Below, in pieces: positions 1 through 3,000 of a stretch of DNA of 64,000 bases. Positions within the stretch are counted from its first letter, which is position 1. The number at the start of each line of letters is the position of its first letter. Origin of the DNA: Escherichia coli (GTDB lineage: Bacteria > Pseudomonadota > Gammaproteobacteria > Enterobacterales > Enterobacteriaceae); NCBI RefSeq assembly GCF_051903065.1, contig NZ_CP178438.1; one strand, written 5' to 3'. A program made the position numbers.

Positions 1-3000
1 AAGATGGATACCCACGCACGGCGTTACCGAATGCAATCGTGTCAAATATCATCCAAGCACCATAAAGAAAGGCAGCACCGGCAACGAACAGGCCAATGTA
101 AGTCCACATGCGCAGCGGAAAGGTAGAGAAGCTGGTGATCCCCTCAAGGGCAAGGTTCCAGAGTTTCCAACCGTTGAACTTCGTGCTGCCAGCTACGCGT
201 TCTGCGCGCGCATATTCAACCACATCAGTGCGTCCGCCAACCCAGCTCAATACGCCCTTCATGAACAGGTTGCGTTCTGGCATGAGCTTAATGTTTTCCA
301 CTACTTCGCGAGACATGAGCCGGAAGTCGCCGACATTCTCTTCTATCTGAGGGTTGCTGATTTTGTTGTGAAGTTTATAGAACCACTCAGCAGATTTACG
401 CTTCAGCCGGCTGTCAGTGGAGCGGTCAGATCGCTTAGCCAGCACCATATCAGCCCCGGCCTGCCACTTCTCGATGAGGTGAGGAATGACCTCAATCGGG
501 TCCTGAAGGTCAACATCAATCGGGATAACCGCCTCACCAGTTGCGTGGTCAAGCCCTGCGAACAGTGCGGGCTCTTTACCGAAATTACGGGTGAAGGAAA
601 GAGGAACGACAAGCGGATCAGCCACAGCAAGCGCGTTTATAATTGATTCTGTCGCGTCTTTGCTGCCGTCATTTATGAAGACTATCTCGACTTCATGCTG
701 CTGAAGCCCTTCAAATTCCCGAACAGTTTTATAAAAAATAGGTATCGCGTCTTCTTCGTTAAAGACGGGAACGACCAGAGAAATTTTCATTTCGCATCCC
801 TAAAGACAATGAACTTTGAATAAATAAAACCGCACACCAGACTGATGGCGGAGAAGGTGATAAGAGTGATAATTGGAGGAAGCGAGCACTTATCAGCAGC
901 CCATCCAACAGTAGCACTCAGTGTTCCCATGAACCCGACATATAACATGTAGCGCATCGTTGTAGTCGATGCTTTGAATGTGAATTTTGCATTCGCGAAG
1001 AAGCTAAAGCTCACAGCCACAACGAAACCTGCGAAGTTTGCCAGAGCCTGATTGGTATGCGCGGCATAGATACATACACCAAAAACCACCCAGTGTATAA
1101 GTGTGTTCAGCACACCAATCGAGGTGTACTTTGCAAATAGCTTTAACATTTCTTCTATCAGCTAATAATCAAAGGCATGAAGTCTATCATCCAAGTCTCA
1201 ATCGATCGATGACTTGCTGTGGTTGATGAGACAAAACTGATGCACACAAAGATTTGCACTGGATTGCAAGGCTTTGTGCTCTTCGATAGTTGTTAAGGTG
1301 GATCACTCCGGCTTTTCATCAATCCAGTCCGCCCACCACTGCATCATCTCCCTGCGCTTATCGAGATACTGAGCATGGTTGTAAATTCAACTAACCCAGT
1401 GCATTGACAAAAAATTAGTGCAAGAAGACAAAAATCACCTTGCGCTAATGCTCTGTCTCAGGTCACTAATGCTATCTAAGTAGTTGATTCATAGTGACTG
1501 GATATGTTGTGTTTTGTAGCATTACGCAGTCTATTTATTAGACTAAAGATATTGTAATGCATTGATATTAATGGTTTTTAATGTTTCACGTTCAGCTTTT
1601 TTATACTAACTTGAGCGAAACGGGAAGGTAAAAAGACAAAAAGTTGTTTTTAATACCTTTAAGTGATACCAGATAGCATTGCGCCATCTGGCAGAGTAAT
1701 TAACTAAACATCGCGGTAATCGATGCGCTTGCCAGAGAGTGGAAATGAACGTTAAACCCGACCATCGCGCCGCTGGCTCCTTCATCGACATCAATACGCT
1801 CTACATCCAGCGCGTGAACGGTAAAAATGTAGCGATGGGTTTCGCCTTTCGGCGGCGCTGCGCCATCGTATCCGGTTTTACCAAAATCGGTACGCGTCTG
1901 CAAAACGCCGTCTGGCATTGCTACCAGACCAGAGCCAAACCCTTGCGGTAATACGCGGGTATCAGCGGGTAAATTAACAACTACCCAGTGCCACTAGCCG
2001 GAGCCGGTTGGCGCATCCGGGTCGTAGCAGGTGACGACAAAACTTTTCGTTCCCGCAGGAACATCATCCCACGCCAGATGCGGTGAAATATTATCGCCAT
2101 CGTAACCCATGCCGTTAAAGACATGACGATGTGGCAACTTATCGCCATCGCGCAGATCATTACTGATGAGTTTCATTAGAATGCCTCCGGGAAACCTCGG
2201 CCTTCAGGCCGGGGAGGAAAGGAGGCGGTTTTCCGACTAACTGTACTTTGCATAATTACATTTTCCTCTTTAGTATGTGAACACATGAAACGCGCATATA
2301 AATACCGGTTTTACCCGACAACTGAGCAGGCTGAGCTTTTAGCTCAGACGTTCGGCTGTGTGCGCTTCGTCTACAATTCCATCCTTCGTTGGCGTACCGA
2401 TGCGTACTACGAGCGAAAGGAAAAGATCGGTTATCTACAGGCCAACGCTCGCCTTACGGCGCTCAAAAAAGAGCCTGAATACATATGGCTGAATGTCCCC
2501 TCCAGCAGTCGTTGCGCCACCAACAAGCCGCCTTTGCTAACTTCTTTGCCGGACGAGCTGCATATCCGGCTTTCAAAAGCAAACGGCACAAACAGGTGGC
2601 TGAGTTCACTGCCAGCGCGTTTAAACACCGTGACGGCGAGTTGTATATAGCAAAAGCAAGTCGCCTCTGGATGTTCGCTGGAGTCGAGAATTACCCTCTG
2701 CGCCGTCAACCGTTACCATTTCCAGAGATAGCGCTGGCAGGTACTTTGTTTCCTGCCTGTGTGAGTTTGAACCTGTATCAATGCCTGTTACCGCTAAAAC
2801 GGTCGGCATTGATGTGGGCTTAAAAGATTTATTCGTTACCGATACCGGATTCAAAACCGACAATCCCCGCCACACCGCTAAATATGCGAAGCGATTAACG
2901 CTGCTACAGCGATGTTTAAGCAGGAAGCAAAAAGGCTCAAGAAACCGTATTAAAGCCCGCTTAAAGGTCGCCCGACTCCACGCGAAAATCGCCGATTGCC

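Follow-up and report, generated by a model that had tools for sequence, protein, structure and literature searches.

The Gtr pathway has been described by a three-step model (PMC7685785, PMC2909390), and gtr operons of Salmonella have been found in remnant phages (PMC3688519). Relatives of the locus described here include a complete 39.5-kb P22-like prophage in strain JNE120393, which lies between ybhC and ybhB and has the same right end, and the Lederbergvirus JEP4, whose int and P arm are lambda-type.

We analyzed a 64,000-nucleotide stretch of Escherichia coli DNA (contig NZ_CP178438.1; the window, below), the start of which had been read in a first-pass annotation as the right end of a lambdoid prophage at the lambda attachment site. 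Our analysis leads us, with high confidence, to a different account: positions 1 to 1609 of the window form the attR end of a defective island of 6.3 kb, a leftover of a P22-like prophage in which the gtrABC operon is intact, carried by an E. coli O38 clone. That confidence applies to this explanation as a whole. The parts of the window that were compared (1 to 21700 and 39001 to 64000) are 100% identical to E. coli 23CRST027; against NZ_AP045789.1 the first part showed 0 mismatches and the second was 100% identical and colinear by megablast, and the runner-up genome reached 99.1% identity. Everything reported to the left of window position 1 was read from window-identical genomes and not from the window sequence. 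When the island was searched by megablast against 5,426 E. coli genomes, the carriers of this allele were three evidently clonal complete genomes, 23CRST027, 23CRST031, and ECNB21-M121. The island occupies the lambda attachment site between gal and bio, in the order ybhC, island, ybhB-bioA, and the window holds the following features of its right part and junction.

1-790, minus strand: gtrB, bactoprenol (Und-P) glucosyltransferase gene; codons 1 to 263 of 305 lie in the window
787-1149, minus strand: gtrA, complete ORF for a small membrane protein of 120 aa, the proposed flippase of Und-P-glucose
1150-1242, minus strand: gtrA leader and upstream region, the presumed promoter area; common to HF4s and the JNE120393 prophage
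1243-1285: conserved hairpin, which the attP of lambda, 434, and JEP4 also has on its b-region side
1286-1386, minus strand: 3'-terminal scrap of an integrase gene of the HF4s (PRK09692-like) type
1404-1594, plus strand: lambda-type P arm of attR, in ungapped alignment to lambda
1408-1449, minus strand: lambda tI/sib-type terminator for leftward transcripts (hairpin 1414-1449, U-run 1408-1413)
1454-1473: P1, its core CAGGTCACTAAT identical to lambda
1477-1489: H1 IHF site, IHF consensus kept
1486-1505: P2 arm-type site, exact consensus CAGTCACTAT
about 1502-1515: X1, identical to lambda
about 1521-1537: X2/Fis region, diverged
1555-1567: H2 IHF site, IHF consensus kept
1595-1609, plus strand: 15-bp common core (O) of lambda att sites, exact match GCTTTTTTATACTAA
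1610-1699, plus strand: B' arm of attB and intergenic DNA to the ybhB stop, identical to the JNE120393 junction
1700-2176, minus strand: ybhB, with an internal stop

The junction itself is as the first-pass annotation had it, a lambda-type P arm and the 15-bp core followed by the bacterial arm toward ybhB and bio. The exact core at 1595-1609 is the single match to GCTTTTTTATACTAA in the 64 kb even with 1 mismatch allowed, where 0 would be expected by chance. Without any indels relative to lambda, the P arm is identical at 160/191 positions to lambda, 175/191 to 434, 177/191 to JNE120393, and 183/191 to JEP4, which agrees with the earlier view that this is a relative of lambda and not lambda; taken together, the core and the 200 nt to its left align with lambda attP at 178/215 positions, again gap-free. 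Lambda's annotated Int sites were carried over by alignment and the IHF and arm-type consensus sites were located by pattern search, while X1, X2, and Fis were placed from what we take to be established knowledge of lambda attP. The Int, IHF, and Xis sites of the attR P arm sit at lambda spacing, and X2 differs from lambda at 4 positions, with 2 of these changes private. Rightward of ybhB come a TnpB pseudogene and then bioA, bioB, and bioF. The ybhB, int, and TnpB genes beside the gtr operon are all pseudogenes, from which we take local decay to be ongoing.

A lambda-type attR with adjoining gtr cargo is what an intact, inducible lambdoid prophage with its body just left of the window would be expected to show at its right end, and intact prophages at the lambda att site do exist in other strains, for instance JNE120393. 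In all three window-identical genomes, however, a second, identical copy of the core in direct orientation lies 6,316 bp leftward, and this copy is attL. Between the two cores we found a truncated int, an IS481-family element, the 3' part of a tailspike gene, gtrC, gtrB, and gtrA, and no xis, repressor or immunity, replication, lysis, or head or virion genes were present within the 6,316-bp attL-attR interval. Given this gene content and the mere 6,316 bp between the att cores, the element is a deletion remnant and not a prophage. The same remnant context is seen on a draft contig, the sole recorded contig of the 99%-identical GtrC cluster. An intact prophage is therefore already refuted for this clone; it would hold only if the window came from an unsequenced relative with a whole prophage, which would be most surprising. 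Of the original call of a prophage right end, then, attR stands and has gained its attL, but the prophage body is missing; upstream, where the first-pass annotation had suggested that a lack of attL or phage genes would count against it, attL is present and phage genes in the ordinary sense are absent.

The left part of the island records how the deletion is arranged. In attL the B arm and the core (15279-15293 in locus L001) are followed by a lambda P' arm with 1 mismatch and then by int, which shows only scattered mismatches to lambda and breaks off at the IS; its homology to lambda ends about 770 bp from the 3' end of the 1,071-bp gene, with some 100 N-terminal codons gone. The IS481-family element is 1,205 bp long with terminal inverted repeats, 99.8%-identical copies of it occur elsewhere, and no target duplication was found across the IS481/deletion joint. 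This element marks the deletion joint and is a candidate for its cause. To its right, an ORF annotated as a 261-aa "hypothetical protein" lies at the place that the tailspike gene holds in HF4s, JNE120393, VE-F10, and EC2, convergent with gtrC. We considered and rejected a novel cargo gene here, since the reading frame continues open until a few codons from the IS and the product aligns, at 40% identity (E 5e-40), with the C-terminal third of a 675-aa Kuttervirus tailspike.

With Xis gone and an Int that has lost its arm-binding N terminus, the island would be unable to excise by itself. As far as their sequences allow a judgment, attL and attR still look competent, and the island might accordingly be a helper-dependent mobile element, excisable by Int and Xis supplied in trans from an incoming phage of lambda-type specificity: the attL P' arm differs from lambda at a single position, and attR keeps P1, H1, P2, X1, H2, and the core at lambda spacing. 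Against this, the 6.3 kb hold no replication, packaging, or transfer function, so that an excised circle would simply be lost, X2 has acquired two private substitutions, and nothing suggests selection for mobility. We think it very unlikely that the island is mobile in this way and continue to regard it as a deletion remnant.

What the remnant has kept whole is the gtr operon. As called earlier, a gtrA-gtrB pair adjoins attR, with the gtrA start 446 bp from the core. The pairing of gtrBA with a neighboring attR occurs in 155 complete genomes. GtrA matches PHROG 2224 over 120/120 positions (E 8.5e-71), has a precomputed PF04138 assignment on an identical contig, and is 92% identical to SfV GtrA. 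The gtrA stop overlaps the gtrB start (ATGA) at position 790, an overlap of 4 nt. In a window-identical genome GtrB is full length at 305 aa, the size of a GT2 polyprenyl-phosphate glucosyltransferase of this kind, matching PHROG 841 over positions 1 to 305 (E 2.4e-164), SfV GtrB at 88% identity without gaps, and the solved GtrB sll0501 (PDB 5EKP) over its full length (E 1.8e-87). Since the gene runs to 305 aa there, its truncation in the window is an edge artifact and the gene is whole, which disposes of the worry, raised in the first-pass annotation, that gtrB might be a truncated fragment. A type-specific third gene had been predicted just beyond the window start, and 128 bp left of window position 1 we found it: gtrC encodes a putative integral-membrane transferase of 535 aa (PF19528/DUF6056) and overlaps the gtrB stop by 1 nt. 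GtrC matches PF19528 at E 3e-66 and keeps all 40 family-invariant residues, including S32-D33-D34. It is far from its phage relatives, with 31% identity to epsilon34 GtrC, 29% to HF4s GtrC, and 34% to its best phage match by tblastn of the phage collection; its nearest non-E. coli relative, in Morganella, is 73% identical, compared to about 30% for any phage GtrC. Sequence searches for solved structures of GtrA or GtrC found none. A terminator-like hairpin with a T-run begins 8 nt past the gtrC stop. The three-gene operon is intact, with every ORF at full length.

Between gtrA and the P arm lies a mosaic of short segments. The leader at 1150-1242 is identical at 89/93 positions to HF4s and at 88/93 to JNE120393, and homology to Shigella phages SfI, SfII, SfIV, and SfV reaches about 1275. 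The hairpin at 1243-1285 is 42/43 identical to JEP4 and 38/41 to lambda, with a predicted fold of -16.1 kcal/mol (z -2.6). The integrase scrap that follows is 94/101 identical to HF4s, where it forms the true end of a 385-aa integrase gene; its translation (...YNHAQYLDKRREMMQWWADWIDEKPE) matches positions 373 to 394 of 413 in the PRK09692 integrase model (E 2.8e-6), and RefSeq annotates a partial pseudogene at 1303-1386. The scrap also occurs in 434, JEP4, and JNE120393 but is missing from lambda. A reading of this 84-bp pseudogene as part of lambda's own att region was rejected, because lambda does not have it and because it matches the 3' end of the HF4s-type integrase gene. Going by these alignments, the scrap is evidently a fossil of an int/att module exchange. 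Within the P arm, the hairpin at 1414-1449, which we name tI/sib on what we assume to be established knowledge of lambda, aligns base for base with its lambda counterpart (-18.3 versus -19.4 kcal/mol for lambda), apart from one private stem mismatch at 1419, and 434 carries an annotated terminator at the homologous place. Across noncoding positions 1243-1609 we counted eight private substitutions.

A consensus scan of the minus strand between 1150 and 1400 found no consensus sigma-70 promoter for gtrA. Because a promoter scan over the whole island returned fewer sites than shuffled sequence did, we claim no promoter. Most Salmonella gtr operons are phase-variable by Dam and OxyR (PMC2909390, PMC3688519), and the same control was considered for this operon. 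The signature of this control is four GATC sites, in two pairs 13 bp apart, within three OxyR half-sites upstream of gtrA (PMC2909390). In the 470 bp to the right of gtrA, however, there are only two GATC sites, at 1204 and 1301 and thus 97 bp apart (the former being the one GATC in the leader, 1150-1242), and no OxyR half-site with 3 or fewer mismatches. Moreover, the gtrA leader belongs to the type found in Shigella phages, and for that type PMC3688519 states that evidence of phase variation is lacking. Dam/OxyR phase variation of this operon is thus highly improbable.

The scan result also bears on whether the operon does anything at all. The gtr genes could be a silent relic, unexpressed and without effect on the O antigen, their frames intact merely because the deletion is recent; consistent with this are the lack of a consensus promoter upstream of gtrA in the scan, the eight private substitutions in 1243-1609, the pseudogenes flanking on both sides, and the confinement of the allele to one clone among complete genomes. 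Other evidence argues for a working operon. All three genes are full length with family-invariant residues intact, the leader is nearly that of HF4s, a phage called O-seroconverting in the title of its preprint, and, of six sampled carriers, five are remnants of independent origin that have lost the phage body and kept gtrCBA. We therefore consider a silent relic unlikely and favor a working operon.

What the sequences show are the anatomy, the junctions, the intactness of the genes, and their homology; expression, acceptor sugar, and phenotype we infer. On this favored reading, GtrB would make Und-P-glucose from UDP-glucose at the cytoplasmic face of the inner membrane, GtrA would bring it to the periplasmic face, and the PF19528-family GtrC would move the glucose onto a specific sugar of the Wzx/Wzy-made O38 O unit. 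The outcome would be an altered O-antigen epitope, and the original effect may have been to shut out superinfecting phages, the parent among them, that recognize the O antigen in its unmodified form. The likely function is thus periplasmic glucosylation of the O38 O antigen. The host genome does carry an intact O38-family wzx/wzy cluster between galF and gnd; the review consulted gave no structure for the O38 O antigen. That five of the six carriers sampled are independent remnants, each with gtrCBA spared, argues for selection on gtr, although an allele present in only three clonal complete genomes gives no power to show selection since the deletion. A more specific proposal, which we offer tentatively and hold to be somewhat less probable than its opposite, is that the divergent GtrC adds glucose, or possibly another sugar, at an undescribed position of O38, making an unrecognized O38 subfactor, and that the deletions which recurred independently at the lambda att site, always sparing tailspike'-gtrCBA, reflect selection for this modification through phage defense or immune evasion after the death of the phage.

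Because the head genes of this element have been deleted, its parent is something we infer: a P22-like podovirus of the Lederbergvirus type. Here we depart from the first-pass annotation, which called the prophage lambdoid. The parent would have been, not a lambda-like siphovirus, but a temperate P22-like podovirus with a lambda-type int/attP module and a gtrA-gtrB-gtrC operon beside its tailspike gene. Complete homologous prophages at the lambda att site carry P22 coat, gp4, gp10, and head-binding tailspike genes, consistent with this origin. The deletion, the joint of which now holds the IS481-family element, would have taken about 33 kb, starting near codon 100 of int and reaching midway into the tailspike gene. 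Lost with it would have been xis, every head gene, and the immunity, replication, and lysis functions. A tblastn search of 50,697 phage records with the tailspike fragment gave 1 distant match, to Kuttervirus CBA6 at 40%. No intact parent phage of the exact allele was found by tblastn of the tailspike and GtrC against phage records or by megablast of the island against the 5,426 E. coli genomes.

These results carry a practical caution: an attR may look like a textbook case and have phage cargo beside it with no prophage present. With 85% of the phage gone, anyone who counted prophages, attempted induction, or assessed risk from the junction alone would reach a wrong result. For serotyping, members of this clone that type as "O38" by genotype may have a glucosylated variant invisible to O-cluster typing. 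The locus is also a clean case of domestication, in that at one site several independent deletions, with different IS elements or breakpoints, have removed the lethal part of P22-like prophages and kept the operon. Current understanding of gtr systems and of lambda integration is unchanged.

Compared with the cassettes of Shigella flexneri phages SfV, SfII, SfI, SfIV, and SfX, the island has the same order and orientation, a tail gene followed by gtrC-gtrB-gtrA on the opposite strand, att, and int. The cassette adjoins the att site in both, and the similarity extends through GtrA, GtrB, and the leader, as given above for SfV and its relatives. The island differs in its lambda-type att/int (ybhC/ybhB), where SfV and HF4s use an HF4s/PRK09692-like integrase, and in its GtrC, which belongs to PF19528 and has no match to the Sf gtr(type) genes by tblastn of the phage collection. 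The SfV region also has Mu-like tail genes, whereas the carrier of the island, now deleted, would have been a P22-like podovirus. P22-like phage HF4s matches window positions 3 to 1386 at 86% and shares the gene order tailspike-gtrC-gtrB-gtrA-int, but it has its own 385-aa integrase, of which the island keeps only the 100-bp 3' scrap. Both HF4s and Salmonella phage epsilon34 have a GtrC of the same family as the island's; given the high divergence between them, the acceptor specificity is probably different.

The JNE120393 prophage and JEP4 share with the island the insertion site, the lambda-type int/xis/attL, and a right end with integrase scrap and P arm. JNE120393 differs in being a whole 39.5-kb prophage, compared to an island that has lost about 33 kb, and in its gtrC, a 1,428-bp gene for a "glucosyltransferase domain" family protein; gtr genes are absent from JEP4. 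With lambda attP and attR the island has in common an identical core, the spacing of the P-arm sites, and a tI/sib hairpin on the P-arm side, which is so placed as to be separated from int in the prophage. With int truncated and xis absent, the tI/sib regulatory logic no longer serves a purpose here. The P arm is 16% diverged from that of lambda, with the differences concentrated around X2/Fis and in the stretch from H2 to the core, and lambda is without the extra 100-bp integrase scrap.

A last parallel is presumably E. coli K-12 CPS-53 (yfdG/H/I), which we take to be likewise a defective prophage with gtr genes that outlived the phage; PGAP names homologues yfdG and yfdH in other strains. 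From CPS-53 and the Salmonella remnant loci the island differs in lying at lambda attB and not at a tRNA gene, in its IS481-marked deletion, and in its other gtrC allele. The element is nonetheless of a known kind, a case of ordinary prophage domestication.

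Window positions 1-1609 hold the attR end of a 6.3-kb island inserted in the lambda attachment site between ybhC and ybhB. We first list the features at this junction.

Features around attR (window coordinates)
790 to the window start, minus strand: gtrB, overlapping the gtrA stop (ATGA) and leaving the window after 263 codons
787-1149, minus strand: gtrA, complete ORF of 120 codons
1150-1242: gtrA leader
1243-1285: hairpin
1286-1386: 3' scrap of an HF4s-type integrase gene, covering its final ~100 bp (C-terminus ...MMQWWADWIDEKPE)
From 1404: lambda-type P arm
1408-1449, minus strand: tI/sib hairpin and U-run, within the P arm
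1454-1473: P1 Int site, core CAGGTCACTAAT same as in lambda
1477-1489 and 1555-1567: H1 and H2 IHF positions, IHF consensus WATCAANNNNTTR at both
1486-1505: P2 Int site, one mismatch, consensus CAGTCACTAT exact on the minus strand
1595-1609: lambda common core, GCTTTTTTATACTAA, exact match
1700-2176, minus strand: ybhB, with an internal stop
2285-3401, plus strand: frameshifted InsQ/TnpB pseudogene (IS200/IS605-type RNA-guided endonuclease) between ybhB and bioA
Right of the TnpB pseudogene: bioA, bioB, bioF

Even when one mismatch is tolerated, the core has a single match in the 64-kb window, and 100 shuffles gave none. To its left, the DNA aligned without gaps to lambda attP, with 178 of 215 positions identical across 200 nt plus the core and 160 of 191 across the P arm proper. 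Int-binding sites were placed by transferring lambda's own annotated sites through this alignment. X1 is the same as in lambda, and most P-arm differences sit in the X2/Fis stretch and the H2-core spacer. The P arm is closer to those of the P22-like phage JEP4 (183/191), a prophage in E. coli JNE120393 (177/191), and phage 434 (175/191), so the first-pass annotation was correct in assigning it to a relative of lambda and not to lambda itself. The bacterial side also ran toward ybhB and bio as anticipated: to the right of the core come the B' arm, ybhB, the TnpB pseudogene, and bioA, bioB, and bioF; every feature of a lambda-type attR that could be tested was present.

Several side observations concern this flank and the wider window. 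The in-frame stop in ybhB, read from the sequence near 1995, agrees with its RefSeq listing as a pseudogene in this clone; the other five att-site carriers that were inspected have an intact ybhB. The InsQ/TnpB insertion is shared with strain 33F4 and absent from JNE120393, VE-F10, 23AR0998, and EC2. Farther right, a DUF3969 gene with an internal stop (16863-17240) occupies the ybhL-ybhN interval, which in other strains contains ybhM-like Bax-inhibitor genes, and at 28600-31600 an IS1A copy adjoins the type III effector gene espX2.

Window 1-21700 showed no mismatches to E. coli 23CRST027 (NZ_AP045789.1), and 39001-64000 was 100% identical and colinear. Given that 23CRST031 and ECNB21-M121 were equally close (the next-best genome reached 99.1%), the context left of the window could be read from these genomes with confidence. 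A second exact core copy lies 6,316 bp left of the attR core, immediately after ybhC, in an attL made up of the B arm, core, and P' arm (one mismatch to lambda), followed by a lambda-type int. Relative to lambda int, this gene has scattered mismatches only, until homology ends abruptly ~770 bp in, at a 1,205-bp IS481-family element with 29-nt terminal inverted repeats and 99.8%-identical copies elsewhere in other strains. No target duplication was found across the two sides of the IS481 joint. To the right, a frame convergent with gtrC remains open until a few codons from the IS edge, and its last 261 codons are annotated by RefSeq as a hypothetical protein. The frame aligns with a Kuttervirus tailspike of 675 aa over the C-terminal third of that protein (40% identity, E 5e-40) and occupies the place of the tailspike gene in phage HF4s and in the prophages of JNE120393, VE-F10, and EC2. 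On this alignment, its position, and its opening to the IS, we replaced "hypothetical protein" with a tailspike 3' fragment.

The island thus reads attL - int' - IS481 - tailspike' - gtrC - gtrB - gtrA - attR, with no xis, repressor, replication, lysis, or head genes between attL and attR. Extending leftward therefore did recover an attL, but the phage genes were limited to int', tailspike', and gtrCBA, and the prophage proposed to lie behind attR is not an intact one. The first ~100 residues of lambda Int include the arm-binding domain. With Xis lost and those residues missing from what is left of the Int ORF, the island cannot excise alone. Eight clone-private substitutions fall in 1243-1609 relative to lambda, 434, JEP4, and JNE120393 (1252, 1291, 1348, 1351, 1419, 1471, 1525, and 1537). 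The tI stem carries one of them and the Xis X2 site two, a pattern compatible with relaxed constraint after immobilisation.

The gtr cargo held up well. Over its whole length GtrA matched the phage GtrA family (E 8.5e-71), and it shares 92% identity with its counterpart in Shigella phage SfV. The truncation of gtrB is due to the window edge and is not present in the genome: in the identical genome the gene has its full 305 codons, and its product is 88% identical, gap-free, to SfV GtrB and aligns along its entire length with the cyanobacterial GtrB of known structure (PDB 5EKP; E 1.8e-87). The type-specific third gene expected just past the window start is there: a gtrC of 535 codons, its start and the gtrB stop sharing one base, with a terminator-like GC hairpin and T-run starting 8 nt past its own stop. 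GtrC belongs to PF19528 (E 3e-66; DUF6056 in the Pfam scan, GT_STM0557_N among precomputed hits), which also includes the phage epsilon34 GtrC (31% identical), and it keeps 40 of 40 residues invariant across 15 diverse family members, among them an S-D-D motif close to the N-terminus. The three reading frames are all intact, and each testable property of a gtrABC cluster was found. Separately, part of window 1-1700 matches two places in NZ_AP045789.1; the second is probably another gtrA/gtrB pair, which could complement or duplicate the island pair.

Under the established Gtr model (PMC7685785, PMC2909390), GtrB would transfer glucose from UDP-glucose to undecaprenyl phosphate, GtrA would carry the lipid-linked glucose to the periplasmic face, and GtrC would move it onto one sugar of the O unit. 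The island operon most likely operates in this way; its expression, acceptor sugar, and phenotype are predicted. A substrate exists, since the genome that carries the island also encodes an intact Wzx/Wzy O-antigen cluster, assigned to the O38 family by its annotation (NZ_AP045789.1 2,481,663-2,488,318; wzx, wzy, three glycosyltransferases, and galE). A Gne-type epimerase gene lies nearby, beyond galF. Upstream of gtrA, the Salmonella-type Dam/OxyR phase switch is absent, as there are two GATC sites, not four paired ones, and no OxyR half-site. For the Shigella-type gtr leader, no evidence of phase variation has been reported (PMC3688519).

The interval between gtrA and the P arm is a small mosaic. 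The leader is 89/93 identical to HF4s and common to Shigella Sf phages as far as 1275, and the hairpin also occurs on the b-region side of lambda, 434, and JEP4. The scrap aligns with the terminal part of the PRK09692 integrase model and in HF4s forms the true end of a 385-aa integrase; it is present in 434, JEP4, and JNE120393 and absent from lambda. (The 434 annotation places a hypothetical ORF there, on the opposite strand.) Lying beside a lambda-type P arm, this scrap is a relic left by an int/att module swap. The tI/sib hairpin folds at -18.3 kcal/mol versus -19.4 in lambda, despite one private mismatch. Because ybhB transcription runs towards gtrA, this terminator may now shield the gtr operon from read-through.

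Between the same ybhC and ybhB, JNE120393 carries a complete 39.5-kb prophage. It contains lambda-type int, xis, erf, kil, cI/cro/cII-type genes, replication genes, a nin region, Q, and lysis genes, as well as terminase, portal, P22 coat, gp4, gp10, needle, ejection proteins, arc, and tailspike. After the tailspike come gtrC-gtrB-gtrA, the same short integrase scrap, and attR. Given this prophage and JEP4, a free-living P22-like phage with a lambda-type int/att module, the island is best read as such a phage minus about 33 kb. The prophages of 33F4, VE-F10, 23AR0998, and EC2 are all remnants of 10-14 kb whose internal breakpoints differ (in order: two IS5 copies, no annotated IS, IS1, and IS1) and which keep int-xis at one end and the tailspike or its fragment with gtrCBA at the other. 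Five of the six sampled att-lambda prophages are thus independent deletion remnants (joints IS481, IS5, IS1, IS1, and no IS annotated), and all keep tailspike or its fragment with gtrCBA. At least two unrelated families are represented among their gtrC genes, and VE-F10 also has an acyltransferase gene. Among 5,426 complete E. coli genomes, gtrBA is joined to this attR in 155, and the present architecture and gtrC allele occur in three only.

The element exists and its anatomy has been worked out, but it is of an ordinary sort. Its novelty is confined to one gtrC allele, one IS481-marked deletion, and a small integrase-scrap fossil; Shigella, Salmonella, and E. coli all offer well-known cases of gtr operons kept in defective prophages.
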